Positions 18,024 through 54,215 of a DNA stretch of 64,000 bases are shown piece by piece. Below the pieces are notes generated by a model. The model made no database searches. It saw only the letters and a program-made list of their open reading frames with translations, and was not told the DNA's origin. The DNA comes from a virus (Duplodnaviria; Caudoviricetes): positions 1 to 64,000 of IMG/VR virus record IMGVR_UViG_3300025875_000011; one strand, written 5' to 3'. Numbering within the stretch: position 1 is the first letter of the stretch; each line of letters starts with the position of its first letter. The translations under genes and the position numbers were made by a program.

Positions 18024-18026
18024 GGG

Positions 18027-22760: not shown

Positions 22761-22921
22761 GGGGCATGCGGGGCCAGGCGATGGGGAGGCGTGAGGAGGT
22801 GTGCCGCACAGGGGGAGGCGCGCAGGGGGCGACGTGTGACCACGCACAGGCATGAGGAGTTGATGATCTTGGTGTGTGTGGGCGTGTGTGTGCTCAGGCA
22901 TGAGTGAGGGGGACGCACATG

Positions 22922-23074
22922 CACCACGGGGAGGCATGAGCGGAGGGGGCGCAGGGCACAGGGATGAGCGGAGCGCACGCACATGCACCACCACCACCAC
23001 CACGGGGTGGGGGGCAGGCACCACGGGGGACGCACGCACCACGCACCACCACGGGGACGCGTCGCACCACGGGG
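22922..23074 (+). repeat. Five direct copies of CACCACGGGG
   Basis: Copies at 22922, 22998, 23019, 23047 and 23065, three followed by (G)ACGC. Confidence 0.8.
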
Positions 23075-24691: not shown

Positions 24692-25027
24692 GTGACCACC
24701 ACTGCCTACAGGGCCGACGAGTGGGATCGCTTCAACGCGATGCCCGCGCCGGCCGAGGTGTTCATCATGACGTGCCCCGAGGGCCACCAGTCCGAGTGGA
24801 GCCACCGTGAGTGGCACATGCTCGACACCGGTGCCTGTCCTCGTGAGTGCCCGGGTCGGATCGACTTCGCCCACGCCCGTCGCCACGTCGACTGCCCGTG
24901 TGACGAGGAGGTCCTAACCGCGCCTGGAGATCTCGATACCGCGCCTGCGGGAGAGACCCCTACCGCGCCTGCACTTCGGAATCCGCGGGCCGTCCGTCGC
25001 TTCCCCACCTTCATCCCGAGGGCCTAA
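24692..25027 (+). CDS. Cys/His-rich hypothetical protein
   Basis: Same leader motif; 3' end reads through three ACCGCGCCT repeats (TAP x3). Confidence 0.65.
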   Translation: MTTTAYRADEWDRFNAMPAPAEVFIMTCPEGHQSEWSHREWHMLDTGACPRECPGRIDFAHARRHVDCPCDEEVLTAPGDLDTAPAGETPTAPALRNPRAVRRFPTFIPRA

Positions 25028-25135
25028 CCGCGCCTCGAGATCGAAACCGCGCCTGGACCGTCGAAGGTGAGGCCACACCGCGCCTGGTGTGACCGCGCCT
25101 GGTCTGTCCAGACCACCACCACCACAGGAGGAACC

Positions 25136-33086: not shown

Positions 33087-33641
33087 CTATCCGGACGCAG
33101 CAGCGCGGAGTTTGGCCAGGGCCCGGTGGTGAGCGACCCGGACAGCGTTCTCCTTCATCCCGAGCCGCTCCCCCACCTCGCTGGCGCTCAGTCCGTGGGC
33201 TCGGAGCATCACGATCCGACCGGCCTGCTCGGGGAGCGCCGCGACGAGGACCAGCGCGGCGTCGAGATCTTGGCGGACTTCTAACAGCGCCTCCGGAGAC
33301 GGATCGTGGCTCGTCTGGTCGGGCAGCTGGTCGACGACGTGGAACGGGGTCCGCGAGTAGGCCCGTTGCGCGTCCCGGACCTTGTTCGAGGCGATCGCGT
33401 AGACGAACGCGCCGAACGGGGAGCCGCGGTCGTCCCAGTGGGGGAGCGCGGCTGCGACCGCGACGCACACCTCCTGGGTCACGTCCTCTGCCGCTTCTCC
33501 CCCGCCGGCGTACGTCGCCAGCCGGGTCCGGGCGTAGCGGTGGACGGCCCTCCTCACAGCGCCCAGCAGGTCGTCGAGGGCGGCGGTGTCTCCGTGTTGG
33601 GCGTCGTGGACGAGGGAGCCGTCGTCCATGCTGGCGGTCAT
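33087..33641 (-). CDS. ECF sigma factor, SigD/ShbA-like
   Basis: Region 2 (AAEDVTQEVCVAV...PFGAFVYAIASNKVRDAQR) and region 4 (LSASEVGERLGMKENAVRVAHHRALAKLR). Confidence 0.92.
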   Translation of the reverse strand: MTASMDDGSLVHDAQHGDTAALDDLLGAVRRAVHRYARTRLATYAGGGEAAEDVTQEVCVAVAAALPHWDDRGSPFGAFVYAIASNKVRDAQRAYSRTPFHVVDQLPDQTSHDPSPEALLEVRQDLDAALVLVAALPEQAGRIVMLRAHGLSASEVGERLGMKENAVRVAHHRALAKLRAAASG

Positions 33642-35793: not shown

Positions 35794-36141
35794 TTAGCGG
35801 CGGCGAGGGAAGTCCGGGGTGACCGGACCGATCCCGCCGATGGTCGGGTACGACGGCCTCGGGGTGAGGGGCATGGAGAACCCGCACGGGGCCGACAGGT
35901 CGATCTCTTCGGGGTCGTCGAGGGTGGCCCGGTAGTCGCGGTTCCCGACACACACCGCCACCCACCCGCTCAACGCGACACCAACGCCGTAGGTCACGGG
36001 GCCCGGGCCGGGGACGACGACCTCCACCTCGTACGGGTGGAGACGGCCGGCCTGGCACGCGGGACACAGCGGCTGGCCGGTGTCGTACCCGCCGTTCAGG
36101 GGACGCAGCGAGTCCAGCGGTACGGCTCTGGTCCCGTTCAC
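35794..36141 (-). CDS. Hypothetical zinc-ribbon protein
   Basis: CPAC...C...C; 4-bp overlap with the upstream gene. Confidence 0.6.
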   Translation of the reverse strand: MNGTRAVPLDSLRPLNGGYDTGQPLCPACQAGRLHPYEVEVVVPGPGPVTYGVGVALSGWVAVCVGNRDYRATLDDPEEIDLSAPCGFSMPLTPRPSYPTIGGIGPVTPDFPRRR

Positions 36142-36392
36142 TGTCCTGCCTCCCTCACCAGTCGCCGCACGTTGTCCGCTCCGATCCCCTGACCCTTCCA
36201 GTCCCCCGGTCCCCACCCCAGGTGGGCGAGCTCGGCCTGGACCGCGCTCGCGGCCTTCGGAGCGGACCCCATGCGCTGAGCGAGCCGGATCATCGCGGGG
36301 TCTCGAACCGTCTCGAGTTCGGCTTGCGCCCGTAGGTACCGGTCCATCGCCTGCGCGGCGATCATCGCGTCCCTCTGGGCGTCGTCATCCAC
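36138..36392 (-). CDS. Hypothetical protein
   Basis: 84 aa helical, in operon. Confidence 0.6.
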   Translation of the reverse strand: MDDDAQRDAMIAAQAMDRYLRAQAELETVRDPAMIRLAQRMGSAPKAASAVQAELAHLGWGPGDWKGQGIGADNVRRLVREAGQ

Positions 36393-36395
36393 GCC

Positions 36396-36713
36396 TCACA
36401 ACCCTAGGGCGTTGAACAGTCCGAAGCCCCCGGTGAGGATGAAGACGACGAGGAGCACGGCCAGCTCGGACACGATGAACATCTGGCCCCAGATGATCCA
36501 CAGCGGCTTCTCGTCGAAACTCATCGGCCGGGGAGACACGGGGAGCCCGCTCGGGTCGTACACCTGGACCTGCCCGCCGACGACGGCCTGGGACTGGCCG
36601 TACTGGTTGATCATCCCGTCGGGCCGGTGGGCGTACTTCAACGTGACCCTGGTGGCCACCCACATCGCGGCCAGTGTTCCCAGGCCGAGGAGGACCTGAT
36701 AGAGCGTGTTCAT
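36396..36713 (-). CDS. Two-TM membrane protein
   Basis: N- and C-terminal hydrophobic helices; 4-bp overlap with the hydrolase gene. Confidence 0.75.
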   Translation of the reverse strand: MNTLYQVLLGLGTLAAMWVATRVTLKYAHRPDGMINQYGQSQAVVGGQVQVYDPSGLPVSPRPMSFDEKPLWIIWGQMFIVSELAVLLVVFILTGGFGLFNALGL

Positions 36714-38947
36714 CGTGCTCCTGTCAGCTGGGCCGTCTCGGGCCACAGCGTGGGGTGGGGGGCCGGGTCGTTGTTGTACCCCGACAGTCCGTTGCCGTGG
36801 TTCGGCCACGACCCCGTGATCTGCGGTGCGCTCTTGGTGCCCTCGTCAAGGAGAGACTCGCCGTGGACGTGGGACCCGGACCCGACGCTCGACCGTCCGG
36901 GGACGTTGCGGGCCCAAGCCGCGAACCCGGCCTGACGCATCGCCGTCTCCTTCGAGATGCAGTCGTCAGCGCCCGAGCAGGCGACGTCGACAGCACCCGG
37001 GTACTTGTGGGAGGTGCCCGACGCTCCGATGTGGCCGCCGCCGTACCCGCCTTGCATGAGGACCAGGTCCTTCCCGGTCTTCGACTCGACGAGGCGGATC
37101 TGGGCGGCGGTGATCGCGGACACGAACTTGCCGTCCATCGTCACCTTCTGCGACGGGACCGAGGGCGGGGCCACGACGCCGACCCCGATGGCCGCCTGGG
37201 CCGACGACGTCGCGATCTCGTGCCACACCGCTTGACGGGCGGTGTGGTCGGACCCGAACTTGCCGAGGTCGTGGACCTCGTCGGGCATCCGGCCGGTGGT
37301 GGCGATGACGTCGATGGTCCGCTTGCGCAGCGTCGGGGACAGGTCGGGCATGTGGAGACCGACCTGGGCGTACATCCCGTTCGGGTCGCCGTCGAAGTTC
37401 ATGTCGCCCATGACGATGACCGGGCCGAGGGGGGCGTGCTGTCGGACGACCTCCTGCAACTTCTTCCACCCCCGGATGGCGACCGCGATCCGGTGGGGCT
37501 CGTCGGGGTTGAGGACGCCGTGGCTCTGAATGTGGGGCAGCTGGTGCTGGTTGACGTACGTCTCGACCTGGCCGGTCCGGATACCGTCGGGTCCCTTCTT
37601 GGCCAGGACCATGACGACGAGGTAGCGGTCGCCCTGGTCGGGACCCTCGACGTTGTCGCCGCGCTCGTAGTAGCCGATGGTGTCGTCGGCCACGAGGTCG
37701 TAGGTCTTGCGGTCGTAGAACATCTCGTGGCTGGTGTGCTTCCCGACGAACGCGAAGTCCTGGCCGTCCATAGCCGCGTTGACGGCCTCCTTCCGGTCGG
37801 GGTCGGACAACTCCTGGGTGGCGATCACCTTCGCCTGCTTGGTGAACCCGACGAGGGCCTTCACCACCCGCTGGTCGTTGCCGTGCTGCTCGCGGGGGTA
37901 GACGCTGCCGTGGTAGCCGTTCCAGGTGATGACGGAGGTCCCCGAGATCGGAGCCCCCGCCCCCGCCGTCGGCGAGCAGCCGGGCGTCGGGCCCGGGGTC
38001 GTCGGGACGGTCGGAGCCGGGGCCGGGGCCTCCTCGCCGGGGCCCACGCCGGACGTGTCGCCCGGGCCGGTCCCGTTCGTCTTCGGCTCGAGGAGCTTCC
38101 CGAGGCCCTTCCCGACCTGCGGGGCCAGGCCGCCGACCTCGCTGCCCGGGACCGGGCTCCCACCGTCGCCGCTGGGCGGGGCCGTGGAGATCGTGGCGTA
38201 GCGGGCGTACTGGCCGACGTGGGACTGGGCCGTCTTGTACGTCGACCAGTCACCGGCCCACGTTCCCCCGCGCCCCTTCCACAGCGCGTAGGCGTACTTC
38301 GCGTTGACGTACGGGTCGGTCCGGTCGCCCAGCTTCAAGTGGTCAGCGTTCGGGCCGGAGATCTGCCAGTAGCCGACGTGGTTGCTCGAGTTGGCGATGT
38401 CGTGGTCGTAGCCCGACTCGTACTTGGCGATCGACACACCGAGCGGGATCTGGCCGAGCCACTTCGCGTCGGTCGGGGCCGCCGCGCGGAGCGCAGCCGC
38501 GGCCAGGTCGGGGCCGTCCTCGCCGGCCGTCCCGCTGGTCCCAGCGGGCGACAGCGGAGCGTTGGGGCTGGAGGGGAGGGTGACGGCTGGCTGGCAGCAC
38601 GACGCGAGCGCAGCGGCCCGACGCTTCTCGGTCTCGACCTGCCACCCCGTCTGCCAGGTGCTGTCCTCGCCGGTCTTCACGTTGGAGTCGAAGTTGTCGA
38701 ACCAGCCCTCGATCGTCCCGATCCCGCCCATGACGTTGCGGTAGATGTCGAGCGCCGACGGGGCGTCACCCTCGGTGAAGTTGTGGACGACCTTCCCGAA
38801 GGAGCCGACCTTCTCCCCGACGGAGAACGCGGCCGGGGTCCCGACCTCCCCGCCGCACGTCACCTCGACCTCGTCCATGTTGAAGGCGACGATCCCGACG
38901 AGGAGCACGCCGACGGTCAGCGCGGCGGTCTTGCGTCCGAGGCTCAC
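36710..38947 (-). CDS. Exported three-domain protein: lytic transglycosylase + EEP phosphodiesterase + M15-like peptidase
   Basis: N-terminal TM/signal; AKYESG...GYWQI...DPYVNAKYA (SLT); TWN, TQE, MGDMN, IDVI, SDH (EEP); SH...AVD...HVH (M15). Confidence 0.8.
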   Translation of the reverse strand: MSLGRKTAALTVGVLLVGIVAFNMDEVEVTCGGEVGTPAAFSVGEKVGSFGKVVHNFTEGDAPSALDIYRNVMGGIGTIEGWFDNFDSNVKTGEDSTWQTGWQVETEKRRAAALASCCQPAVTLPSSPNAPLSPAGTSGTAGEDGPDLAAAALRAAAPTDAKWLGQIPLGVSIAKYESGYDHDIANSSNHVGYWQISGPNADHLKLGDRTDPYVNAKYAYALWKGRGGTWAGDWSTYKTAQSHVGQYARYATISTAPPSGDGGSPVPGSEVGGLAPQVGKGLGKLLEPKTNGTGPGDTSGVGPGEEAPAPAPTVPTTPGPTPGCSPTAGAGAPISGTSVITWNGYHGSVYPREQHGNDQRVVKALVGFTKQAKVIATQELSDPDRKEAVNAAMDGQDFAFVGKHTSHEMFYDRKTYDLVADDTIGYYERGDNVEGPDQGDRYLVVMVLAKKGPDGIRTGQVETYVNQHQLPHIQSHGVLNPDEPHRIAVAIRGWKKLQEVVRQHAPLGPVIVMGDMNFDGDPNGMYAQVGLHMPDLSPTLRKRTIDVIATTGRMPDEVHDLGKFGSDHTARQAVWHEIATSSAQAAIGVGVVAPPSVPSQKVTMDGKFVSAITAAQIRLVESKTGKDLVLMQGGYGGGHIGASGTSHKYPGAVDVACSGADDCISKETAMRQAGFAAWARNVPGRSSVGSGSHVHGESLLDEGTKSAPQITGSWPNHGNGLSGYNNDPAPHPTLWPETAQLTGAR

Positions 38948-39249
38948 CGGCGGAACACCCGCATCACGGCAGCGACCAGGAGGAGGACCAGCCCGATGAG
39001 GCCGATGACACCTCCCGCGTTGGGGAGGCCCGCGGTGGCGAACTTTCCGCCGCCCATGAGCACCCCGACACCGGTCGCGGCGACCCAGGTGGAGCGCCGG
39101 TAGGTCTTCTTCGGCGGGGTGGCGGGGTCAGCGTCTCGCGCGTCCTGGGCCTGGAGGTCGCGGCCGCGGCGGGACACGGTGGACTCCCGGACGTGGACGG
39201 TCCTGCCGTTGACGGTGCGGACGTGAGCTCGCCGGGTGAAGGTGCTCAT
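38944..39249 (-). CDS. Small basic membrane protein
   Basis: Basic N-terminus (repeat RAHVRTVNGRTVHVRE) and two C-terminal TM helices; overlapped packing. Confidence 0.7.
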   Translation of the reverse strand: MSTFTRRAHVRTVNGRTVHVRESTVSRRGRDLQAQDARDADPATPPKKTYRRSTWVAATGVGVLMGGGKFATAGLPNAGGVIGLIGLVLLLVAAVMRVFRR

Positions 39250-41303
39250 TCGCTGTCTCCGAAGCCTGGGATGTGGGTGAGGTGGTCGCCGCCGACGAGG
39301 ACCGGTTCACGTCGGGGGACCGGCTTGCGCTTCCGGGTCCGCGGCTTGGCCTTCGGCTTCGGCTCTTCGACGACGTCGACGACCTCGCCCTCGAGCACGA
39401 CGGGAGCCGTCGCGTGGGGGTAGCCGCGGTACGCGTGGAGGATGTCGATGGGGGCCTGGTCCTCGAACAGGTCGGGCTCGACCGGCTCGGGCGTCTTGCG
39501 CTTCCGCTTCGGCAGATCGAGGGGGGTGATCTCCCCGTCGCGGTCGAACTTCGGGCCCCGGTAGGTGAGGCGGGTCAGGTGGGTGGCCCGGTTGTTCCCC
39601 GCGCCGGCGATGTTGAACATCGGCTGGAGGGCGTGGATCTCCTTCGACTCCCAGGCGAGCGCGGTCGGCTCGCCTGGGAAGACGCCCGACTCGGTCCAAC
39701 GGACGTGGGTGGCCCACCAGCGGCAGTCGACGTTGGAGCAGCCGGGGAACGGGCACCAGCCCTTCCACACGTCGTCGCGGCGGTGCTCGCCGTAGCGGCG
39801 GTCCCGCTTGTTCGTCTCCCCCGAGTAGATGTGGATGGCCCGTCCCTTCGGGGTGACGCCGAACGCGCGGTAGCCGTAGTGGGGACGCAGACCGTTGCGG
39901 AGTTCCCGGGCCAGGTCGCGGGTCATCATGTTCTCGGGCAGCTCGCCGGTCGTCATGAGGTGGCGGACGTGCTGCTTCCCGACGTCGGCGGTGCGGAACT
40001 TCATCCGCTCCCCCTCCTCGGTGACGTAGTAGCCGACGCCCCGCATCCCGAAAGGGATCTGGGAGCAGGGGACGCCTTCGTTCTCCCCGATTCCGAGGAC
40101 AGCCTTCGTGTCCTCAGCCGACGTCTGACGCATCGAGGCCCGCAGCTGGAAAGCCTTTCGGATACCGCCGATCTCCTGGACGGTGGCGACCTGGACGCTC
40201 ATCCACACAAAGTCGGCGGTGCTCCGACCCTGAGACATGTAGACGCCCATGTCGGTCTTCGCCATTCCGGCCTGGAATAGCGGGGCCACGTCGAGGCCTT
40301 CGTCGATGATCGTCAAGACGCCGGGAAAGTCGGGGTTAGGCCCGCCGATGTCGTTGAGGTCCATCGCCTCCTTTTCGGCCAGGATCTCTTGACGTTCGTG
40401 GAGTTCGGCGCGCATGGCCTTGAAGTGTTCGGTGGCCTCCTCCAGCGTGGTGAAGTAGCCGCGGATGCGGATGTTCCCGTGGCCGAAGGACTTGCCGACC
40501 CACCGCTGGAACCAGCGCAACTCGGTGCGCTTCGGGTCGACGATCCACACGTCGGTCGGCGTCTCGTCGCGGACGAGGTCGAACCACAGGTTCCAGGTGA
40601 ACTTGCTCTTACCGGCCCCCGACGCGGCACCGACGAGGATGTTGAAGCCGTACGGGACCTGGGCCACCTTCCCGTCGTTCTGCCAGCCGAAGGAGATCGA
40701 CGCCTTCCCCGACGGGGGGAGGTCGAGGATCGACCGGGTCGCCTCGAGCGGGCTCTTGTCCCAGAACGTCAACCACCCAGCGCCCTTCCCGGACGGGCTG
40801 ATCGAGATCTCCTCGCACTTCATCGTCCCGGGGAGGACGGTGACGGCGTCAGCGGAGATGCGGGCCATGTCGCCACCGAGCGAGCCGGGACTGACGTAGG
40901 CCCGGACCTGCCCGGTCGGCGTCAACTTCTTGCGGAGGAGCTTCGGCTCGACCCCGTTCCACGACACCTTCTGGCCGGCCGTGTAGATGGCCCACCGGGC
41001 GTCGATGTCGCCGAACTTCTTCCCGCTGGTCAGGAAGTTGAACGGAAGCCGCCACCACGGGACCTCAACGCCTTCGTCGACGAGCTCGGCGCGACGGTCG
41101 ATGATCTTCGTGACCACCAGCCACAGCAGGACGGCGGCGATGGTGAGGAGGACGACCTTCCCGCCGCTGAAGATGTCGCCGGTGAGGTCCCAGCACAGCC
41201 ACCAGTAGAGGCCGAGGACGGTCAGCGCGACCGGGGGTGGGAAGTCCATCCACCGACGGTTCGGCGTGCCGATCCAGTTCCACAGATCCTTCATGGCCTT
41301 CAC
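39246..41303 (-). CDS. Membrane-anchored FtsK/SpoIIIE (TraB-like) ATPase with C-terminal GIY-YIG-like domain
   Basis: Two N-terminal TMs; Walker A GAASGAGKS, VDPK, Walker B LTIIDEG, QGRS; C-terminal HYGYR...IYSGETN...R...H...E..EI....PMFN. Confidence 0.85.
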   Translation of the reverse strand: MKAMKDLWNWIGTPNRRWMDFPPPVALTVLGLYWWLCWDLTGDIFSGGKVVLLTIAAVLLWLVVTKIIDRRAELVDEGVEVPWWRLPFNFLTSGKKFGDIDARWAIYTAGQKVSWNGVEPKLLRKKLTPTGQVRAYVSPGSLGGDMARISADAVTVLPGTMKCEEISISPSGKGAGWLTFWDKSPLEATRSILDLPPSGKASISFGWQNDGKVAQVPYGFNILVGAASGAGKSKFTWNLWFDLVRDETPTDVWIVDPKRTELRWFQRWVGKSFGHGNIRIRGYFTTLEEATEHFKAMRAELHERQEILAEKEAMDLNDIGGPNPDFPGVLTIIDEGLDVAPLFQAGMAKTDMGVYMSQGRSTADFVWMSVQVATVQEIGGIRKAFQLRASMRQTSAEDTKAVLGIGENEGVPCSQIPFGMRGVGYYVTEEGERMKFRTADVGKQHVRHLMTTGELPENMMTRDLARELRNGLRPHYGYRAFGVTPKGRAIHIYSGETNKRDRRYGEHRRDDVWKGWCPFPGCSNVDCRWWATHVRWTESGVFPGEPTALAWESKEIHALQPMFNIAGAGNNRATHLTRLTYRGPKFDRDGEITPLDLPKRKRKTPEPVEPDLFEDQAPIDILHAYRGYPHATAPVVLEGEVVDVVEEPKPKAKPRTRKRKPVPRREPVLVGGDHLTHIPGFGDSE

Positions 41304-41386
41304 GGTGCGGGGGTCCTTCCGGGGGGTGGTGGTGGTAGACGAGGACGTCGGTACCCAGTGCAGGTACCGACGCCCTCAGGGGTGGC

Positions 41387-41617
41387 TCAGCCCTTCGACG
41401 GAGCCGAAGCGATGTCGAACGCCTTGTCGAACTTGTCGCCACCGCCGGAGAGGGAACCGGCGAGGACGCCGGCTCCCTGCTCACCGGTGTCGCGGACGGC
41501 GTTCGTCATGTTGGCCGCGGCCTGGACGTCTCGCATCTGCGCGATCCCTCCGATGGCGAACGACAGGATGATGAACGTGCCGAGGATCAGTCGGCTCAGG
41601 GATCCGCTCTTGAACAT
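41387..41617 (-). CDS. Small membrane/exported protein (pilin-like size)
   Basis: 76 aa, single N-terminal hydrophobic helix; first gene of the FtsK module. Confidence 0.65.
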   Translation of the reverse strand: MFKSGSLSRLILGTFIILSFAIGGIAQMRDVQAAANMTNAVRDTGEQGAGVLAGSLSGGGDKFDKAFDIASAPSKG

Positions 41618-41687: not shown

Positions 41688-42338
41688 TGGTCCTGCCGCA
41701 GGTCACACTCGCTGGACCGGGGAGTCCGTCACTCCCCCGACGGGGTGGGACGTCTCGGTGCTGGAGTCCTGCTGGACGAGGGGACAGGGGCCTCGCGTTC
41801 CTTCCCTTGGTGGTGGTGTCGGGGCGGGGGTTCGGACCCTCCCCTGGCTGAGCAGCCCTCAGGATAGCGTGAACCGGTTCCACGGTGGTAGGCGGCGGCC
41901 CAGCGGGGCCTACGCCTACCACTCCAGCTGCCCTATCCACCGGTCGGGAACGGGCTGCTGTTGACGCCTGCTTGACATGGCGAATAGGATCGGCGTCGCA
42001 CCACTCGCTCCGCTCCCCGCGCGGCGCCGGACCCCCCCACCTCGTCCGGCCAGGCCCCGCCTGCCGCCCTCCCCCAACCTGTTGCTCGGGCTGGCTGTCG
42101 AGGTACGGCTCAGGCCCCGCAGTGCCGCCTTCTCCCACCGTGGAACCGGTTCCCGCGATCCTGTCGGTCTGCCCAGCCCGGGTCGGGTCCTCTCCCCCGC
42201 CCCTCCCCCACCACCTCGGGAGAGGAACGCTCGTCCCCTGTCCCCGCGTCCGCAGGACTCCCGCACCTTGACGTCCCACCCCGGCAGGGGAGGGACACAG
42301 ACTCCCCTGGTCCCGCGAGGGTGTCTGCGGGGGGACCA
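41688..42338 (-). repeat. Long imperfect inverted repeat (arms ~41688-41896 and ~42124-42338); candidate structured ncRNA
   Basis: Manual alignment; perfect 18-bp core GAACCGGTTCCACGGTGG (41871-41888 vs 42135-42152) plus many 5-14 bp matched blocks. Confidence 0.8.
41961..41990 (+). promoter_or_regulatory. Sigma70-type promoter TTGACG-N18-TAGGAT inside the repeat loop
   Basis: Consensus-like -35/-10 hexamers in a non-coding region. Confidence 0.5.
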
Positions 42339-42596: not shown

Positions 42597-42869
42597 CTAC
42601 TCAGCATGGCTGGCTCGCCGTCGCGCTCCGGAGGATCGCTTCCCGGAGTCGCGGTGGCGCTGGTCGATCGCCGTCTCTCCCGTGGAGTGGCCCTTCCACC
42701 CGGAGAGGGCGTAGCCGGCCGCGGCTCCCCACTCCGGGTCGGGGACGATGTCCTGGCGGCCGTTGAGGGCAGCTGGGGTGTGCTCGGGACAGCGGGGTCC
42801 GGGCTGGTACATCCGGACCCCCTTCGTGGCCGCGCAGGACTTCGTCTGGAGCCAGTGTTCGCACATCAT
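42597..42869 (-). CDS. Small Cys/His hypothetical protein
   Basis: CEHW...C...RCPEHTPAA motif. Confidence 0.6.
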   Translation of the reverse strand: MMCEHWLQTKSCAATKGVRMYQPGPRCPEHTPAALNGRQDIVPDPEWGAAAGYALSGWKGHSTGETAIDQRHRDSGKRSSGARRRASHAE

Positions 42870-43285
42870 CCGACCACCTTGACAGGTCGGCCCGGGCAAC
42901 GCGCGAACAGCGTCACGCCCTCCCCCTCCCCCGTGGTGTCCTCCACGGGGAAGGACCGGTGGCCCTGGGGGAAGGGGTGGGAGCGGAGCCACGGCTTCTT
43001 CGGCCAGGTGGTGAAGCACTGGGGGCAGATCCACCACCCGACCGGGTCGAAGACGCGCTTGGTCGGGATCGGCCAGGAGCCGGACGACGACGCGCCGACC
43101 TGGGGGTGGTCGGTGACGAGGTGGACGGTGGCCCGGTCGGGACACCACGGGTCCCCGCACACCGGGGCAGGGTGGGGTTCGGGCCGGAACAGCCAGGCCT
43201 CGAGGATGCGGGCCAGGGGGTGGATCACAGGCCACCTCCGCGACAGTTCGCGGTACACGTCCCGCCGTCGAGGATGTCGCACCAC
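42866..43285 (-). CDS. Hypothetical zinc-binding protein (start uncertain)
   Basis: CxxxxC and CPQC motifs. Confidence 0.5.
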   Translation of the reverse strand: MVRHPRRRDVYRELSRRWPVIHPLARILEAWLFRPEPHPAPVCGDPWCPDRATVHLVTDHPQVGASSSGSWPIPTKRVFDPVGWWICPQCFTTWPKKPWLRSHPFPQGHRSFPVEDTTGEGEGVTLFARCPGRPVKVVG

Positions 43286-43488
43286 GGGAGGTGGAGGGCG
43301 AGCTCGGCCTCACGCTTTACCCAAGCGCGGCCAGCGAGCGGCGCGAACACCGTCTCGCCGGGAGTCACGTTGGCCAGGTCGTCCCGGATGAGGTTCAGGT
43401 AGGCCGGCCGAGCCGGGTCCTGCTCGGGGTAGAGCGGGACCACGTTCACGTCCAGGGGGGCGGGGTCGAGGTCCATCCAGTCGGCCAT
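43225..43488 (-). CDS. Hypothetical protein
   Basis: 87 aa, overlaps the PLD stop. Confidence 0.55.
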   Translation of the reverse strand: MADWMDLDPAPLDVNVVPLYPEQDPARPAYLNLIRDDLANVTPGETVFAPLAGRAWVKREAELALHLPWCDILDGGTCTANCRGGGL

Positions 43489-44567
43489 CAGCGCCACACC
43501 TTCGACTCGCGGTGGACGAGGTCGAACCAGCGCATCGTCTGCTCGACTTCGGCCAGCGACTTGATCGTGACGATGGCGTTGGTGTTGTAGGAGCTGCCTC
43601 CCAAGTTCGCGGAGCCGGTGATCACCTCGTTGACCTTCTTCGACCGGATCAGGATCACCTTGGCATGGTCCTTCACCTCGGCGAACGACGTGTCGCGGGT
43701 GTCGATGTCGTATTTCCGGATCGCCTTCAACACGTCGGGCTCGGTCTGCTCGGACGCGATGACGAGGCGGACGTAGCAGCCCTGCCGCTTCTTCTTCCCG
43801 GCCTCGATCGCCACTTCCTTGCGGGAGTCGTTCCAGATCATCATCACGACCTCGATGGTCGGGCGGACTTTCTTCCCGTGGAGGGTGTAGGCGTCGCAGT
43901 TGACGGCCGCGACTTCCTTGGCCCGGTTGTCCGGCCCGCCCGGGAGATAGTCGATTTTCCAGCTGCCGTCCTTCGACTTGATCGACTTCGGCGACTTCAC
44001 CTTGCGGTCGTAGCCGAGCGCCTTCACCCAGGCGGTGGTGGTGGTGTAGATCTTCCGGTCGTACGTCGAGGACCAGGTGTTCCACTTCACCTCGCCGGTG
44101 TTGGTGACGTTCCCGGAGGCGAGGAGCGAGCGGCCGGTCGTCTCGTTCCCGAGGAACTTGAGGTGCTGGACGCCCTTCCCCTTCTTCGCGGACGCGGGGG
44201 ACCCGTCGGCCTTGATCGCCCACGAGCTGGCCTTCGGGTTCGACCCGAGGCGGTGGACGAGGTCGTCCATCGCGTTGTAGTGGTCGCCCTTCCACGACAG
44301 GACGCGGACGTTGACGTGGCGGGCGATGGCGCGGACGAGCGCGGAGTGGACCTCCCAGTTCGACAGGCCGTACGTGGCGAGGGTGAGGTCGTCGCCGGCC
44401 TTGGCCCGGTCGATCTCCAGGCGCATCTGGTGGTTGAAGGAGTCGGCGGTGGTCTTGGTCCCACCGGCCGAGGAGGGGATGTTGAAGGAGATCGCCTGAG
44501 CGGGAATCGCCGGGGCGACGAGGAGAGCGGTGGTGGCCAGGCCGGCCAGGACGGGGCGGAGCTTCAT
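43488..44567 (-). CDS. Secreted phospholipase D superfamily protein (two HxK motifs)
   Basis: Signal peptide ending AQA; HLKF...ASGN and HAKV...ITGSAN. Confidence 0.85.
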   Translation of the reverse strand: MKLRPVLAGLATTALLVAPAIPAQAISFNIPSSAGGTKTTADSFNHQMRLEIDRAKAGDDLTLATYGLSNWEVHSALVRAIARHVNVRVLSWKGDHYNAMDDLVHRLGSNPKASSWAIKADGSPASAKKGKGVQHLKFLGNETTGRSLLASGNVTNTGEVKWNTWSSTYDRKIYTTTTAWVKALGYDRKVKSPKSIKSKDGSWKIDYLPGGPDNRAKEVAAVNCDAYTLHGKKVRPTIEVVMMIWNDSRKEVAIEAGKKKRQGCYVRLVIASEQTEPDVLKAIRKYDIDTRDTSFAEVKDHAKVILIRSKKVNEVITGSANLGGSSYNTNAIVTIKSLAEVEQTMRWFDLVHRESKVWR

Positions 44568-44617
44568 GGGGTGGGTCCTTCTGTGGTGGTGGTGCGGGTG
44601 GTGGGTTGGTGGAGGCG

Positions 44618-45358
44618 TCAGAACGGGTCTCCTACTTGGGTGGTGGTGGGCTCGGGGTCGACCTTCTTGACCCACGGGAGGCGGACGGACGTGAACCCTC
44701 GGTCGATGCTGGCCCGGAGGTATCCGGGCTCGACCAGGCCGATCGAGACCATGACCGCGAGGAGCGCCCACAGCTGGTCGCCCGTCATGGGGGTGTCGAG
44801 GTAGAGGTGGCCGTGGCCTTCGGTCGTCGACGGCACATAGGTGACGGGGACGTCGAGGTCGATCACCGGGGCGTGGAGGGCCGTGGCGAGGTGCTCGGGG
44901 TCGATCGTCCCGTCCTTGCGGGTCTTGGGCCAGAACTCCTCCTGGATCAGCGAGGTGACGACGTCGGCCCGGGCGACACCGGTCGGGGCCACGCTCCCCT
45001 CGTAGGACGACCAGTCGGCCACGGTCCCTGTGACCCGCTTCACGGTGCCGGGGACCACCTTCGCGTCGTGCTCCGCGAGCACAGAGGCCGGGTAGTCCTC
45101 GCGGGGCATGATCCCGGGGCTGGTGGTCGCGTCTTGGAACTGCTCGGCCGTGACCTCGAGAGCCAGGTTCGTGAGGGTCGCGCTGACGGCCTCGGCCATC
45201 CGGTCCTCGGGGTCCTCGTCGGTCCGGGAGTCGAGGAACCGCACGAACGCGCCGAGCACGCCCGCGGCGGCGGCGTCGACCTCAGCTGCCGTGGTCGTCC
45301 GGGGGAGGGTCTCCTTGATCGCCGCGGCCACCTCCTCGCGGAGCGTGAGCGTGGTCAT
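44618..45358 (-). CDS. Conserved phage protein with DxD / HxH motifs
   Basis: HAPVIDLDVP...STTEGHGHLYLD...RLPWVKK. Confidence 0.7.
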   Translation of the reverse strand: MTTLTLREEVAAAIKETLPRTTTAAEVDAAAAGVLGAFVRFLDSRTDEDPEDRMAEAVSATLTNLALEVTAEQFQDATTSPGIMPREDYPASVLAEHDAKVVPGTVKRVTGTVADWSSYEGSVAPTGVARADVVTSLIQEEFWPKTRKDGTIDPEHLATALHAPVIDLDVPVTYVPSTTEGHGHLYLDTPMTGDQLWALLAVMVSIGLVEPGYLRASIDRGFTSVRLPWVKKVDPEPTTTQVGDPF

Positions 45359-48508: not shown

Positions 48509-48906
48509 GGGAGCACCACGTCTCGGTCTTCGACGGGCTGGTAGTTCCCGCGCCGGGTCTTGACGATCGGGTCCCACCCGTTCCCGCGCATGTTCGCGGC
48601 GAGGGTGCGGAACTCGTTGCCCCACGACTCGACCTCGGCCAGGGTGTGGGTGGTGCCCCGGTAGATCCGGTGACGGTTGACCGGGGTGGCGACGGTCTCC
48701 TTACACGGCCGCCATTCGACGTCTCCCTCGTCGGTCGACCACCGCTGCCACCAGGCGTCGGTGACCTCCAGCGCGAACCATCCGGCCGGGTCGACCGCGT
48801 CGAGGGCCACGGCGGTACCGGGGTTGTCGATGCGGATGGCCTCTCCCTCCTCGGAGAAGAACGACCCGGGGTAGAGCGGCTTGACGTGGAACCTGCGTTC
48901 GATCAC
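48505..48906 (-). CDS. Hypothetical protein
   Basis: 133 aa, 4-bp overlaps. Confidence 0.65.
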   Translation of the reverse strand: MIERRFHVKPLYPGSFFSEEGEAIRIDNPGTAVALDAVDPAGWFALEVTDAWWQRWSTDEGDVEWRPCKETVATPVNRHRIYRGTTHTLAEVESWGNEFRTLAANMRGNGWDPIVKTRRGNYQPVEDRDVVLP

Positions 48907-50270
48907 TTTTTCCGACCCTTCTCCTCGGCCTTGCGGTCGGCGATGATCCGCTTCTCGATGTCGGACAGGCCGTACCCCCACTTGCTGAGGATCTCGAGGT
49001 ACGGGGCTGCGGTCGCCAGCTGCGAGCGCCACGCGTCGTCGGTGAGGTAGTCCTCGACCGACGCGACGACGATGCACAGCGTCAGGTGCGCGGCCCGCTT
49101 CGCGGAGGCCCGGTTGATCTCGGTGGACACCTTGTCGCGGTCCAGGCCGACGAGGGGGAGGTGGGTGGCCGACGTCGGAATCCACGTCGTCAGGTGGCCG
49201 GCGACGAACTTCTCGGACCCGGCCAGGGTCGCGGTCGACTTCCCCAGGGTGAGGAGCCACTTCGCGCGGACGTTCGTGGCCTCCTTCCACGCCTTGTTCG
49301 ACTCGACGACGCGCTTCCGCTCGGCCTTCGCGGCCTCACGCGCCTCGTCGGACTGCTCGGAGGCCGGGACCTTCGCGGCCGGGGGCTGGGCGTACGACAT
49401 CTTCTCGTGGCCGTTGGCCTTCCAGTCGGTGCAGACCTCGGTGGTGGTGACGTTCCACCCGGAGGTGCGCCAGTCCTGGTGGACGGTGAGGTAGACGGCC
49501 TTCCCGGGGCAGGTCGCGTGGTCGTTCGCGGAGACCTTGAGGTTGAGCAGCCGCTCCCACTCGGGAGCGAGCGGGCCGTGGTCGACGGGCCGCTCGACGA
49601 CCTTGATCCCCTCGGCCTCCAGCGCGACGGTCGCGTCTTCAATGGCCTTCACCCGGGCCTTGTCCGACTCCCACTCGTTCCGGACGTGCTCGACGTCCTG
49701 GCCGGCCGCGGCGTCGTTGAAGACCTCGATCAGCATCTCCCCGTCCGCTCCGTCGGCCTCCATCTCCGCGACGAGCTCGGCGAACTCCAGAGACAGGCCC
49801 TCCTCGGCGTACGTCTTCGCGGTCGGGGACGCGACGATCTTCCGGGCCGCGTGGACCGTCTCGGGGTCGAGGTTCAGGCTCGACGCGAGCAGGTCGGCCG
49901 GGACACCGAACAGGGCCAGCTCGTCGACGGCTGCGACCTCGTCGGTCAGGTTCATCGCGGTGCGGTGGTGGTTCTCGGCCCACTGGTCGACGACCCGCTC
50001 GTACGTGGTGGGCTCGGAGGGGTGGACGTAGACGGGGACGGTGTCGCGCTCGGCCACGATCGCGGCCAGGGTCCGGCGCTGGCCGGCCTTGACGACGATG
50101 GCCCCGGTCGGGTCCCGCCAGGCGACGATGGGCTCGAGGACGCCCCGGTCGCGGATGGAGGCGATGAACTCGGGGTTGAGGTCGACGTGGTCGGCCGATC
50201 GGATGTTCAGGCCGATGGTCAGGGTCTTCGGGTCGAGGTGCTCCAGCGTGGGAGCGGTGGTGTCGGTCAT
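48903..50270 (-). CDS. ParB/RepB/Spo0J family protein, long plasmid-type form
   Basis: NIRS...FIASIRDRGVLEPI...KAGQRRTLAA...AENHHR, then HTH and C-terminal CPG/CTDW segment. Confidence 0.85.
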   Translation of the reverse strand: MTDTTAPTLEHLDPKTLTIGLNIRSADHVDLNPEFIASIRDRGVLEPIVAWRDPTGAIVVKAGQRRTLAAIVAERDTVPVYVHPSEPTTYERVVDQWAENHHRTAMNLTDEVAAVDELALFGVPADLLASSLNLDPETVHAARKIVASPTAKTYAEEGLSLEFAELVAEMEADGADGEMLIEVFNDAAAGQDVEHVRNEWESDKARVKAIEDATVALEAEGIKVVERPVDHGPLAPEWERLLNLKVSANDHATCPGKAVYLTVHQDWRTSGWNVTTTEVCTDWKANGHEKMSYAQPPAAKVPASEQSDEAREAAKAERKRVVESNKAWKEATNVRAKWLLTLGKSTATLAGSEKFVAGHLTTWIPTSATHLPLVGLDRDKVSTEINRASAKRAAHLTLCIVVASVEDYLTDDAWRSQLATAAPYLEILSKWGYGLSDIEKRIIADRKAEEKGRKK

Positions 50271-50464
50271 GCGGGTGAGCCTTCCTTGGTGGGGGTGGAG
50301 ACGGAGCCGTAGACGACGGGGACGTCGTCGGGCTCGGAGAGGCGGCGGTAGAACTCCTCGGGGAGACCCGGGGAGGCGGGGATCGTGATGTACCCGGGGG
50401 CGACTCGGACGGTCTCCCGCTCGGTGTTCATGGTCCCGCCGACGTACGCGATGATCACGCTCAC
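50267..50464 (-). CDS. Small hypothetical protein
   Basis: Leader motif and SD. Confidence 0.55.
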   Translation of the reverse strand: MSVIIAYVGGTMNTERETVRVAPGYITIPASPGLPEEFYRRLSEPDDVPVVYGSVSTPTKEGSPA

Positions 50465-50549
50465 GGCGTGTCCTTCCTGGTGGTGGTGGTGGTGGTGAGG
50501 GTGGCCCGTCCGCGCGCGGTGGGAGCGGGCGGGCCACCCGGTCAGTGGG

Positions 50550-51670: not shown

Positions 51671-52084
51671 TCACAGACCGGGGAGCGCGCCGTCCGTCGA
51701 CCCCTCCACGCCGTAGTCGGACTCGTCGAGGTCCCACCAGGTGTCATCGCGCCGGTCCCAGACCGTGTCCAGGTGGCAGCTGGGACAGCGCCAGACGTGG
51801 AGCCAGTACGTCGGAGTGGCCGGGATCTCCTGGGTCACCTCGTAGGTCCGTCCGGGCTGGTTCTTCGACCGCTTTAGCCGGGTCATGGTCACGGTCTCCC
51901 CCGCCAGCGGGTAGACCAGGCCGGTGTTCATCGCGGACTTGTCCCGGGATCCGCACTCGTTGCAGGTGACCGGCTTCATGTGCCAGTCGGCCGTCGTCCA
52001 GTAGGTCTCCCAGCCCTTCCACTCCACCCGGTGGCCGTCCCACAGCGGCGGGAGGTCGTGGAGCGTGGGGAGCGCCCGGACCAT
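51671..52084 (-). CDS. Zinc-ribbon hypothetical protein
   Basis: LPPLWDG...CNEC...CPSC...WDLDESDYG. Confidence 0.7.
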   Translation of the reverse strand: MVRALPTLHDLPPLWDGHRVEWKGWETYWTTADWHMKPVTCNECGSRDKSAMNTGLVYPLAGETVTMTRLKRSKNQPGRTYEVTQEIPATPTYWLHVWRCPSCHLDTVWDRRDDTWWDLDESDYGVEGSTDGALPGL

Positions 52085-53490
52085 CAGTCCTTCACCACCG
52101 AGAGGTAGTCGCGGCTCGACTGGATCGGGGTGAGCCGTTCCGGCTGGGACAGGCGGGCGTACTCCCCGAACTTGATTAGGCTCCGGACTCCGGTCGGGCC
52201 GTTGCGCTGCTTGCCGAGGATGGCCTCGACGTCGTCGGACTTCTCCATCTTGCCGTTGATCTCGACCTCCTCCTCCCACAGCAGCCACACGTTGTCGGCG
52301 GTCTGCTCGAGGTCGCCGGACTCGCGCAGGTCCGACACCTGGGGGCGCTTGTCCTGTCGGCCCTCGGGGTTGCGGTTCAGCTGGGCGAGGACCAGGAGGT
52401 GGGTGTCGTACTGCTTGGCGAGGGCCTTCAACTCGACGATCACCTCCCCGATGTGCTGCTGGCGAGACAGTCGCGGGTTCACGGCCCGGACGAGGCCGAT
52501 GTAGTCGATCGCTACGATCCCGAGCCGGTTCCCGGCGCGGTGGGCGCGGCGGTGAGCGGCGACGATCGCGCTCTTGATGTCGAGGATGGTCTGGCCGCCG
52601 TCGTCGACGACGGTCAGGTAGTCGCGGTCGGCCCGCATCTTCGGCAGGGCCCGGTTGATCCGGTCCCAGTCCTTCGGTCCGAGCGCGTCGCCTCCGGTGA
52701 GGATCGAGGTGAGGTTGACCCCGGCCGTGTGGGCGAGGGTCCGCTGGGTGATCTCCTGTTCGGTCATCTCCAGGCTCACGATCAGCGCGTGCTGCTGGTG
52801 GCGGCGGACGAGGTCGGTGACCGCGTTCTCGGCGAACAGCGACTTCCCCGCGCCGGGGCGGCCGGCGACGATGGTCACCCCTCCGGGGGTCCAGCCGCGG
52901 AACAGGTTGTCGAAGTCGGACCAGGCCGTCGTCGGGACCCGCTGGTTGCCGTTCTGGGCGATGTCGACGACAGCCTCGAGCGCGGACGGCTTCACGTCGT
53001 TGGTCTCGCGGCGCTCCCGGATGCGGTCGAGCCACTCCTGGGTGGAGGCGAGGAGCCGCTCCGGGTCGGAGCCGGGGGTCCGTACGGCCTGGACCATCCG
53101 GAGCCCGACTTCCCCGCTCTGGCGCAGGAGGGAGCACTCGCGCAGCTTTCGGGCGTAGTGCTCGGCCTGGAACGAGAGGATGGTCGTGTCGCCGTTGAGG
53201 TCGGTCAGGAACACCGGCCCGTCGGGGAGCCGGTGGACGTGGCCGCCCATCCGGGCGATGAACATCGCCACCGAGGGGACCTCACCGTCCGCGTCGAGGT
53301 CGACGGCCAGCTGCCACAGGTAGCCGTGCATCGGGTTCGCGAAGTCGTGACGGTCGACCAGCCGCTTGAGCCGGGGGATGTCGTTGTAGCCCTGGAGGAC
53401 CGCGCCGACGACGGCCCGTTCCCACCACGCGTCTTCGGGGCCGTCGAGGGCGTCGACGGCCTCCACCTCGGTGCTCACCGTCTCGCTCAT
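52084..53490 (-). CDS. dnaB: DnaB-like replicative helicase
   Basis: AGRPGAGKS, SLEMT, IDYIGL, LAQLNR, RPQVSDLRESGDLEQTAD and KQRNGPTG motifs. Confidence 0.96.
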   Translation of the reverse strand: MSETVSTEVEAVDALDGPEDAWWERAVVGAVLQGYNDIPRLKRLVDRHDFANPMHGYLWQLAVDLDADGEVPSVAMFIARMGGHVHRLPDGPVFLTDLNGDTTILSFQAEHYARKLRECSLLRQSGEVGLRMVQAVRTPGSDPERLLASTQEWLDRIRERRETNDVKPSALEAVVDIAQNGNQRVPTTAWSDFDNLFRGWTPGGVTIVAGRPGAGKSLFAENAVTDLVRRHQQHALIVSLEMTEQEITQRTLAHTAGVNLTSILTGGDALGPKDWDRINRALPKMRADRDYLTVVDDGGQTILDIKSAIVAAHRRAHRAGNRLGIVAIDYIGLVRAVNPRLSRQQHIGEVIVELKALAKQYDTHLLVLAQLNRNPEGRQDKRPQVSDLRESGDLEQTADNVWLLWEEEVEINGKMEKSDDVEAILGKQRNGPTGVRSLIKFGEYARLSQPERLTPIQSSRDYLSVVKD

Positions 53491-54215
53491 GCGATGTCCC
53501 AGTTAGGCTCGCGGGTCGGACGGCCCTCGGTGAACGAGTACGCGTCCCTGGTGGCGACCTTCGCGCGGAGCCCCACGATCTCCTCCTCCCAGCACCCGCC
53601 GTTCAGCCACGGGAGCGACGTCTTGCGGTAGCCGTCCGGGGTCTGCTCCTGCTCCCACCAGGCCACGCGGGCCTTGATCGCCTCGACGATCATCTGGGGG
53701 TCGACGCCGGCCTTGACGACGGTCCGGAACTTGGCGAGGTTCTTCGCCTTCGACCCCGCTCGACGGGTGCTCGGGTAGGTCGTCCAGAACTCCTCGAAGG
53801 CGACGAGGATCGGGTCAGGCGCTACGTCTACTTCCCTTCCATCGTTCCCTTCAATCGTTAGTAGGTCTGTGGGACACCCCTGGGGTGTCTCTGTGACAGG
53901 GGTGGGGTGTCTGTGTGACACCCCTTCCTCGGGGCCTCCGAGCGTGTAGATGTTCGGTGCCCGTCCGGGCCTTCCCTTCGGGTCCACGGTCCAGGTGACG
54001 AAGCCACGCTCGCGGAGCGAGTCGAGCGCGCGCCGAGCTGTCGACTCCGAGACGGACGCGTCCTTGGCGATCACAGCGAGCGACGGCCAGCACTGGAGTC
54101 GAGCGTTCGCCCTCGACGACAGCGCGAGGTAGACGATCTTCTCCTGCACAGAGATGTCGGGGTCGCGCTGGATCGCGCGGGGGATGGTGGCGAAACCTTC
54201 AAGGTCGCCGCTCAT
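53487..54215 (-). CDS. Replication initiator (N-terminal winged HTH)
   Basis: CWPSLAVIAKDASVSESTARRALDSL; FEEFWTTYP; WLNGGCWEEE; directly upstream of dnaB. Confidence 0.85.
   Translation of the reverse strand: MSGDLEGFATIPRAIQRDPDISVQEKIVYLALSSRANARLQCWPSLAVIAKDASVSESTARRALDSLRERGFVTWTVDPKGRPGRAPNIYTLGGPEEGVSHRHPTPVTETPQGCPTDLLTIEGNDGREVDVAPDPILVAFEEFWTTYPSTRRAGSKAKNLAKFRTVVKAGVDPQMIVEAIKARVAWWEQEQTPDGYRKTSLPWLNGGCWEEEIVGLRAKVATRDAYSFTEGRPTREPNWDIA

Follow-up and report, generated by a model that had tools for sequence, protein, structure and literature searches.

We analyzed a five-gene cassette carried by a tailed phage (Duplodnaviria; Caudoviricetes) that is represented by a single IMG/VR virus record (IMGVR_UViG_3300025875_000011; 76,216 bp, rated 91% complete and without terminal repeats). 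The first 64,000 nucleotides of this record, hereafter called the window, have a G+C content of 70%, and the cassette occupies positions 36396-41617, where five tightly packed genes (g1-g5) lie on the minus strand. An initial annotation made from the sequence alone had described five mostly coupled genes that form a conjugation-like DNA-transfer module within an intact tailed-phage genome, and the open reading frames (ORFs), their strand and their overlaps were all confirmed. The g2 and g3 genes overlap by 4 nt (39246-39249), as do g3 and g4 (38944-38947), and g4 and g5 share an ATGA overlap provided that Met33 of the longest g5 ORF (ATG at 36713-36711) serves as its start; g1 and g2 are separated by 83 nt. 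The G+C content at third codon positions of the five ORFs (0.86-0.95) resembles that of the rest of the genome. A further ORF, g6 (36138-36392), was considered as a cassette member and excluded because its conservation could not be demonstrated.

The g2 gene (39246..41303, minus strand) encodes a 685-aa protein that combines a membrane-anchored, TraB-like FtsK-type ATPase with a GIY-YIG nuclease. Its anchor (aa 23-76; 41076..41237, minus strand) is a helical hairpin, with helices at residues 23-41 and 44-76 of the AlphaFold2 model and hydrophobic 19-mers at residues 42-70. A hydrophobic segment is found within the first 130 residues in 87 of 96 family members, and both termini of the anchor are predicted to be cytoplasmic by the positive-inside rule. 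The motor (aa 115-455; 39939..40961, minus strand) is of the FtsK alpha/beta type and carries Walker A (G231, K232, S233) and Walker B (D334, E335) residues together with Q371 and R382, which are invariant or nearly so among the 96 members; G231, K232, D334 and E335 are present in all of them (96/96). The motor is followed by the nuclease domain (aa 470-570; 39594..39896, minus strand), a GIY-YIG domain with a Cys/His-rich insert, in which Y478, Y493, G495, R503, H507, E552 and N564 occur at the GIY-YIG spacing and are likewise invariant or nearly so in the 96-member alignment, at least four of five core nuclease residues being kept in 92 sequences. The remaining tail (aa 571-685; 39249..39593, minus strand) is basic, Pro-rich and disordered, with a predicted local distance difference test (pLDDT) score below 50 and no secondary structure, and it ends with the motif HLTHIPGFGxSE (39249-39290), which is kept in close relatives and may be a docking peptide for some partner. 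No winged helix was found in this C-terminal part of g2, residues 470-570 being the GIY-YIG domain and 571-685 being disordered.

Searches with the single g2 sequence or with a five-sequence profile were uninformative and gave only weak FtsK-type hints, and a profile of 96 family sequences was required for domain assignment. Over the motor, this profile matched FtsK (6e-27), EccC (1e-23) and TcpA (9e-16), and over positions 484-562 it matched the N-terminal GIY-YIG domain of UvrC (4.7e-5) and also SLX1. In addition, the Pfam GIY-YIG model matched two of the five closest g2 members (best E 0.0016), and a structural match in BFVD was found to the GIY-YIG endonuclease of Mycobacterium phage Cornie (E 2.5e-4). 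The AlphaFold2 model of g2 (pLDDT 85.8) contains the hairpin, a single motor domain, a compact domain at residues 475-560 and the disordered basic tail, and a Foldseek search with it returned FtsK (4e-15) and TcpA (1.4e-14) with approximately 400 aligned columns. The earlier assignment of g2 as a membrane FtsK-type ATPase is therefore supported by profile, fold and N-terminal hydrophobic segments alike, and the GIY-YIG nuclease at its C terminus was missed at that stage. By its motifs, this domain is an intact GIY-YIG nuclease with predicted activity. The family-wide conservation of both the GIY-YIG and the ATPase residues indicates that both activities are under selection.

Only four close homologues of g2 were found in a collection of 5.8 billion proteins, and an exhaustive profile search recovered 583 cluster representatives at E<=0.001, including 199 at E<=1e-10. 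Ten family members were looked up, and all of them come from metagenome collections (JGI/IMG, Logan, ENA), none having an NCBI or UniRef record. To place the family among FtsK-like proteins, we used a reference set composed of pMR2 TraB, the TraB-like proteins of Mycobacterium avium pS2b, Gordonia pGRS1 and Amycolatopsis pAmy1, pIJ101 Tra, TcpA and TcpB of pCW3, Escherichia coli FtsK, a Bacillus plasmid SpoIIIE-like protein, a three-domain EccC-like protein and the FtsK-like protein of Streptomyces phage StarPlatinum. The TraB-like gene of pS2b directly adjoins a replication-initiator gene, and pMR2 has such a gene further along its transfer region. The hidden Markov model (HMM) of the g2 family scored highest against the TraB-like proteins of pS2b (252 bits), pGRS1 (243), Micromonospora pMR2 (225) and pAmy1 (207), compared with 84 bits for FtsK, 83 for StarPlatinum gp112, 72 for pIJ101 Tra, 70 for the EccC-like protein, 59 for TcpA and approximately 10 for TcpB; apart from TcpB, every reference outside the TraB-like group lay between 59 and 84 bits. 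The TraB-like match spans both anchor and motor (HMM positions 26-30 to 466-468 of 631, the alignment to the TraB-like references running from position 24-35 and thus including the anchor) and ends where the nuclease begins, and the TraB-like references also have N-terminal hydrophobic segments. FtsK-like ORF63 of Thermobifida phage P1312 was considered as a family member and rejected, as the family HMM did not match it.

A phylogenetic check proposed together with the initial annotation gave the same picture. In a careful IQ-TREE run with 29 rows and 332 columns, aligned with the family's own HMM and containing few references (10), the branch uniting the g2 family with pMR2-type TraB proteins received 100/98 support, the g2 family itself 89/91 and the TraB-like group 98/94, so that g2 groups with TraB-like proteins and away from FtsK, TcpA and the EccC-like protein, which lies on the other side of the 100/98 split. 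The Streptomyces protein pIJ101 Tra did not group with the g2 family. A protein atlas also pointed, as a lead only, to the same actinobacterial clusters of FtsK-domain proteins of 450-480 aa. Taken together, the HMM scores, the tree and the shared anchor indicate, at the level of sequence, that in g2, a TraB-type pump, a nuclease has taken the place of the DNA-reading tail.

The g4 gene (36710..38947, minus strand) encodes a 745-aa protein with an N-terminal anchor, a helical stalk, an SLT transglycosylase, an endonuclease/exonuclease/phosphatase (EEP) phosphodiesterase and a C-terminal domain. The lytic transglycosylase domain (SLT/SLT_3) covers aa 165-250 (38198..38455, minus strand), with PF01464 at aa 171-235, and the EEP domain (PF03372) covers aa 338-575 (37223..37936, minus strand). 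The Pfam matches of g4 to SLT and Exo_endo_phos are weak; the catalytic pair E177-S178 is invariant across homologues, all five EEP catalytic motifs are present and are kept in six EEP-bearing homologues, and SLT_3 (PF18896) was detected in five of seven scanned homologues and was also recorded for homologues P0156-P0159. The AlphaFold2 model of g4 is poor (pLDDT 52), its EEP domain being the sole well-modelled part, for which Foldseek returned Tdp2 and other EEP structures at 3e-11. This domain is predicted to lie outside the membrane. With the transglycosylase Glu-Ser pair, the five EEP motifs and the N-terminal anchor in place, the proposal that g4 is a peptidoglycan hydrolase fusion holds. 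The last 156 residues (aa 590-745) were considered as an M15/LAS-type metallopeptidase (SH-x6-D ... HxH) and this was rejected, neither Pfam nor the PDB giving support.

Hydrolases of the g4 type are anchored at their N terminus and have in common a conserved Cys, a helical stalk and, in the transglycosylase, the invariant Glu-Ser pair. Their domain order is SLT_3 or a (tail-)lysozyme followed by a variable EEP, M23, NlpC/P60, CHAP, beta-propeller or VldE domain, the EEP domain being present in only some of them. Between g4 and its homologue in a complete relative (G001), the first 134 residues, i.e., anchor and stalk, are 60% identical compared with approximately 30% for the EEP part, and the pump proteins are 69% identical. 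That the anchor-stalk is the best-conserved part of g4 suggests contact with the pump.

The other three genes encode small membrane proteins. The 76-aa product of g1 (41387..41617, minus strand) has a single hydrophobic helix at the N terminus (aa 4-29), followed by a tail rich in Gly and Ala that probably lies outside the membrane. Its identity to the ORF upstream of the pump is 59% in the related locus L001 and 32% in L003; it has no Pfam, PHROG or NCBIfam match and is not WXG100-like. Of its earlier description as a small exported or pilin-sized protein, the small size and the hydrophobic helix stand, but no pilin marker was found and size alone fits. Small proteins encoded upstream of traB genes of the kind found in integrative and conjugative elements of actinomycetes (AICEs) were examined as possible g1 relatives and are soluble and unrelated to it. 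The g3 protein (101 aa; 38944..39249, minus strand) combines a strongly basic N-terminal half with a C-terminal hydrophobic hairpin (over its full length, 17 K+R versus 5 D+E); a 104-aa ORF at the same position in L001 shares 52% identity with it, and it was not found in distant cassette members. The g5 protein (105 aa; 36396..36713, minus strand) has two hydrophobic helices, its start at Met33 of the longest ORF being supported by homology to an 82-aa L001 protein (BLASTP E 6e-4), and a positional homologue is present in L003. Sequence and hydrophobicity thus agree with the proposed basic membrane protein (g3) and two-helix protein (g5), neither of which is conserved beyond close relatives.

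The non-coding gap upstream of g1 contains an imperfect palindrome of approximately 570 bp (41728..42296, unstranded; inverted repeats I1-I3 and I7), with arms of approximately 190 nt, a predicted fold of -234 kcal/mol (z -23) and the 10-mer GAACCGGTTC in each arm. A sigma-70-like site lies at its centre on the plus strand (TTGACG, 18 nt, TAGGAT; 41961-41990), and Rfam gave only sub-threshold noise at this position. The palindrome is absent from the complete relatives G001 and G002 and from the matching gaps of L003, L006, L009 and L010, and because relatives lack it, it was rejected as a clt- or oriT-like site of the cassette. It is possibly an insert resembling a miniature inverted-repeat transposable element, an origin or a regulatory hairpin.

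The initial annotation had suggested a search for the same gene set in other phages, and pump and hydrolase indeed recur in other phage-like contexts. Eight contexts were sampled (L001, L003, L006, L007, L008, L011, L012 and L013), which extend from close relatives of g2 (69% identity) to distant ones (about 21-24%, as measured in the 96-member alignment). In seven of the eight (L001, L003, L006, L007 and L011-L013), the pump comes after a small protein whose N-terminal segment is hydrophobic, and the ORF beside the ATPase in L008 has its hydrophobic stretch further in rather than at the N terminus. An anchored hydrolase with SLT_3 or tail-lysozyme follows the pump in seven of eight contexts, the L012 sequence ending before that point. 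In five of the eight, the genes for pump and hydrolase overlap or directly adjoin each other, an overlap with the pump stop codon being frequent, and otherwise one small ORF (window, L001, L013) or three ORFs (L007) lie in between. Phage structural or lysis genes are present in the three largest loci (L001, L003 and L006), typical phage genes occur in L007 and L008, and L011, L012 and L013 are short or unannotated loci. Proteins with DUF6221, which is not encoded in the window, occur inside or directly after the cassette in three distant loci (L006:13055-13405, L007:11860-12117 and L008:14677-14982).

We also examined two complete relatives, G001 (68,646 bp, with terminal repeats) and G002 (60,852 bp), which share the pump and the hydrolase with the window. 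No homologue of the window portal or DnaB was detectable in either, the hydrolase being found by the same tool as a positive control, and the cassette is therefore mosaic cargo exchanged between otherwise dissimilar phages. In addition, the distant carriers L006 and L007 have integrases, and the cassette lies there between the tail/lysis genes and the integrase. The presence of the same cassette in independent assemblies, including a genome that is bounded by direct terminal repeats and rated 100% complete, disposes of the concern that the segment is an assembly chimera. Searches of INPHARED by megablast and tblastn with the cassette, the ATPase and two family members revealed no cultured phage with the cassette, the sole matches being weak P-loop similarities to FtsK-like genes of cluster-BE Streptomyces phages, which have a different context without a hydrolase. 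Two scans of GTDB genomes found no family member in a prophage or integrative and conjugative element, and a tblastn search with the g2 ATPase produced no match to a Streptomyces plasmid.

We further searched for features expected of plasmids, conjugative elements and defence systems. Tyrosine and serine integrases were not found in the window genome, G001 or G002, as had been noted for the window, and the same three genomes lack VirB4-type ATPases (PF12846, AAA_10) and the relaxase family PF03432, the only relaxase family searched; the statement that neither relaxase nor VirB4 is seen thus agrees with these searches. Two ParB-like genes are present (20916-21542 and 48903-50537), but no ParA (PF13614) was detected in the window record, G001 or G002, so that the label of plasmid-type ParB could not be upheld and the two ParB-like proteins may not serve plasmid partition. 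No match to DUF2637 (SpdB2) was obtained, the control genomes being equally silent for this family. No clt-like array was found as clustered 7-9-mers at the g2 3' end or in or beside the cassette, a search by which a repeat-less site is undetectable. PADLOC gave only marginal matches (mad8, E 0.001), and no paper in the literature collection searched joins GIY-YIG with TraB in Streptomyces. With no ParA, clt-like repeats or SpdB2 found in these searches, the earlier inference of a phage-plasmid is weak, and the presence of the cassette in integrase-bearing phages and in phages with unrelated heads and replication genes shows that it is not tied to a plasmid lifestyle.

As judged by its gene content, the surrounding genome is that of a tailed phage. 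The expected genes are present, namely tape measure (511-4857), major head protein (9231-10181), protease and portal (portal 11777-13363) and large terminase (TerL, 13576-15279), in agreement with the view of an intact tailed-phage genome, and they are accompanied by genes for DnaB (52084-53490), a strand-annealing protein (58468-59448) and an endolysin (from 62659). The portal is no more than 38% identical to portals of Streptomyces, Arthrobacter, Thermobifida and Mycobacterium phages, which indicates an actinobacterial host. A queuosine/7-deazaguanine-type gene set (15894-20138) with GTP cyclohydrolase-like and tRNA-guanine-transglycosylase/DpdA-like members adjoins the terminase and suggests that the phage DNA is modified, which could bear on self/non-self discrimination by the nuclease fused to g2. 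The cassette itself is located between replication genes and a sigma-factor-like gene (phrog_1740; 33087-33641), i.e., among early/middle genes. The latter gene shares the strand of the cassette and lies approximately 2.5 kb downstream of it, with several minus-strand ORFs in between, and suggests phage-directed timing of transcription.

Several other features were observed in the window. On the other side of the cassette, a phospholipase D (PLD)-like protein (PLDc_2, DrmC-like; 43488-44771) appears to be secreted, and a signal-peptide-like segment at aa 68-91 of its longest ORF indicates that translation probably starts within this ORF. In L001, too, a PLDc_2 gene adjoins the cassette, such genes accompanying it in close relatives alone. 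A 139-aa Cys/His/Trp-rich ORF (CGDPWCPD ... CPQC; 42866-43285) without a database match is situated between the PLD-like gene and the palindrome. The tape measure gene contains a tandem repeat array with a 66-nt (22-aa) unit and higher-order periods of 132 and 198 nt (1365-1905). Short direct-repeat clusters, which are candidate operator, parS or origin sites, occur at 22909-23147 (units GGGACGCAC / CACCACGGGG), at 24917-25095 (CCAGGCGCGG) and at 53832-53925 (2.8 copies of a 22-bp unit near DnaB); the first of them sits in the gap that separates the leftward from the rightward gene blocks.

Comparison with known systems helps to define what is unusual in this cassette. In TraB, a winged helix reads the clt site and thereby lets the pump select its own DNA, a mechanism reportedly worked out on TraB of pSVH1, and we know of no nuclease or wall hydrolase that is a requirement of TraB systems. 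Anchored proteins that join an SLT or lysozyme domain to CHAP or NlpC/P60 represent the wall-hydrolase design of Gram-positive conjugation, such as CwlT of ICEBs1, PrgK of pCF10 and TraG of pIP501. TraB acts as the single pump of double-stranded-DNA conjugation in actinomycete plasmids (PMC3429521). The phage cassette resembles the TraB systems of plasmids and AICEs in its homologous anchor and FtsK-type motor, in the small membrane proteins encoded alongside and in that no PF03432 relaxase or VirB4-type ATPase was found, whereas it differs in that a GIY-YIG domain with a disordered basic tail takes the place of the winged helix that reads clt, that a wall hydrolase with a membrane anchor is a constant partner, and that no clt repeats, SpdB2/DUF2637 or integrase were found in carriers that are tailed phages. 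The part of the initial annotation that saw a TraB-like transfer system therefore stands with respect to anchor and motor kinship and gene coupling, but not with respect to DNA recognition, given the swapped C terminus and the fact that neither a clt-like array nor SpdB2 was found.

The two-helix-anchored FtsK-like ATPase beside an anchored bifunctional hydrolase is also reminiscent of Gram-positive conjugation, as exemplified by TcpA and TcpG of pCW3. However, no VirB4, VirB6-like, VirB8-like or PF03432 relaxase genes were found here, TcpA is distant (59 bits), and the phage hydrolases often carry an EEP phosphodiesterase. Among phages, pZL12, a plasmid-phage of Streptomyces, requires for its transfer a tra gene and two neighbouring genes (PMC3583192), and SpdB2-like proteins of actinophages have been proposed by Thoma et al. 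to aid the spread of phage DNA (PMC4447253). Both pZL12/phiZL12 and the phages phiC31 and VWB, which have SpdB2-like genes, are thus similar to the window phage as actinophage genomes with conjugation-type DNA-transfer genes. In contrast to the window phage, which lacks ParA, pZL12 has ParA/ParB and a plasmid state (PMC4487206), and no nuclease fusion has been described for systems of the pZL12 type. By analogy only, g2 may also be likened to a large terminase, a single polypeptide in which a nuclease is joined to an ATPase that translocates DNA and which cuts and then pumps; the ATPase and nuclease folds are unrelated, and terminase is soluble and docks on the portal, whereas g2 is membrane-anchored and the phage has its own TerL. 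What is new in the cassette is a phage-borne TraB-type pump in which a nuclease replaces the DNA reader and which is locked to a wall hydrolase.

Homology to TraB and the constant presence of an anchored hydrolase of conjugation-type design speak for a machine by which DNA crosses the envelope, and with pZL12 there is a precedent, known from experiments, of conjugation by a phage genome. Our preferred explanation, which we hold tentatively and at somewhat less than even probability, is that the cassette is an envelope-crossing cut-and-pump DNA conduit, most likely for virion-independent movement of phage DNA. In such a scheme, g2 would assemble into rings at the membrane via its helical hairpins, as FtsK and TraB do, and its nuclease would nick or create an end in replicating phage DNA or trim branches, thereby supplying what a ring-shaped pump requires on circular, concatemeric or branched DNA. 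The motor would then push double-stranded DNA through the membrane, while the anchored g4 hydrolase would open the wall locally and the basic g3, together with g1 and g5, could help to build or gate the passage as parts of a complex. The phage DNA would presumably arrive in an adjoining cell or compartment, so that the cassette would represent a terminase-like logic set in the membrane.

Several observations weigh against this conduit. The winged helix on which clt-based choice of DNA depends is absent, and no clt-like array was found in or beside the cassette; neither a nuclease nor a wall hydrolase is known to be required by TraB systems; and the cassette travels among unrelated phages in the manner of accessory cargo. 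The host is resolved to an actinobacterium only, which lends no support to a mycelial host. Moreover, a nuclease on a membrane-bound DNA binder is an experimentally shown defence in SNIPE (PD-lambda-1) of E. coli, a membrane-bound GIY-YIG nuclease that cleaves phage DNA during injection (bioRxiv 10.1101/2025.11.03.685801) and that may be compared with g2 by analogy.

This precedent has added weight to an alternative already named in the initial annotation, a membrane-bound exclusion system, which we consider somewhat unlikely, if still a serious competitor. The anchored pump-nuclease would catch incoming foreign double-stranded DNA at the membrane, reel it in and cut it, the target being a second phage or a conjugative element and the phage's own DNA being spared by its location or by 7-deazaguanine-type modification, for which the queuosine/deazaguanine-pathway genes could provide the mark. 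The layout of g2 is the same as that of SNIPE, which likewise has an N-terminal anchor, a cytoplasmic DNA-engaging middle and a C-terminal GIY-YIG fold, with a DNA motor in the middle in the case of g2; replacing the winged helix by a nuclease would remove self-selection and add a destructive activity; and both the mosaic spread of the cassette among phages with unrelated portal and DnaB and its position between tail/lysis genes and integrase in temperate relatives would suit an exclusion function. On the other hand, the middle domain of SNIPE is DUF4041 rather than an ATPase motor, and SNIPE consists of one host gene that has no hydrolase as its partner. Exclusion leaves unexplained why a transglycosylase-type hydrolase and a small anchored protein accompany the pump, often with translational coupling, and the PADLOC match is marginal.

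A role in host takeover combined with auxiliary lysis is quite improbable. Here, the nuclease-motor would degrade membrane-attached host DNA for nucleotides, like the GIY-YIG endonuclease II of phage T4, and g4 with the small membrane proteins would be a second unit of the signal-anchor-release (SAR) endolysin/holin kind that merely shares the operon. The weakly hydrophobic Gly/Ala/Val-rich N terminus of g4 does resemble a SAR segment, g1, g3 and g5 are membrane proteins of holin size, the cassette lies among early/middle genes, and the phage's own DNA may be modified. However, the genomes already have a separate endolysin/holin, degradation of the host chromosome needs no membrane anchor, and the tight coupling of pump and hydrolase together with the co-conservation of stalk and pump points to one machine.

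It is very improbable that the cassette imports DNA, i.e., that DNA of lysed neighbours is pulled in and chopped for nucleotide salvage after pre-processing by the EEP domain and the PLD-like enzyme or, in a variant, that the external EEP and the secreted PLD-like enzyme clear wall polymers. Such a role would account for external phosphodiesterase-type domains (EEP of g4 and the PLD-like protein at 43488-44771) beside a membrane motor with a cytoplasmic nuclease, but there is no homology to competence proteins, EEP occurs in some hydrolases only and the PLD-like gene near the cassette in close relatives only, and no phage precedent is known. Finally, a type VII-like protein secretion ATPase of the EccC/EssC kind exporting a g1-like protein can be given almost no credence: the NCBIfam EccCa match of g2 (E 1.5e-4) reaches 20.7 bits against a cut-off of 509, and although the family profile matches EccC structures, g2 has a single motor in place of the three tandem FtsK-like ATPase domains of EccC/EssC, g1 is not of the WXG100 type, the fused nuclease implies a DNA substrate, and the EccC-like protein scores far below the TraB-like ones (70 versus 207-252 bits) and is separated from g2 by the 100/98 split.

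Whichever function applies, the pump represents an unannotated family of at least 199 sequence clusters (E<=1e-10) that is so far known from metagenomes only. Should it prove to serve exclusion, phages would carry an ATP-driven counterpart of SNIPE that derives from a conjugation protein. As to the passage of circular double-stranded DNA through a TraB pore, a pump that carries its own nuclease suggests that a cut may contribute; if the conduit model is correct, such a membrane "terminase" would show how a ring-shaped pump exports DNA without a free end. It is possible, though in our view unlikely, that many tailed phages of Actinomycetota have a second, particle-free mode of spread, in which a TraB-derived pump-nuclease would cut their replicating DNA and move it through a hole made by the hydrolase into a neighbouring cell or hyphal compartment. 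If the cassette does move phage DNA, the spread of actinomycete phages would not be by virions only, and ideas on their host range, on how plaques grow and on how genes flow between phages and conjugative elements would have to be rethought.

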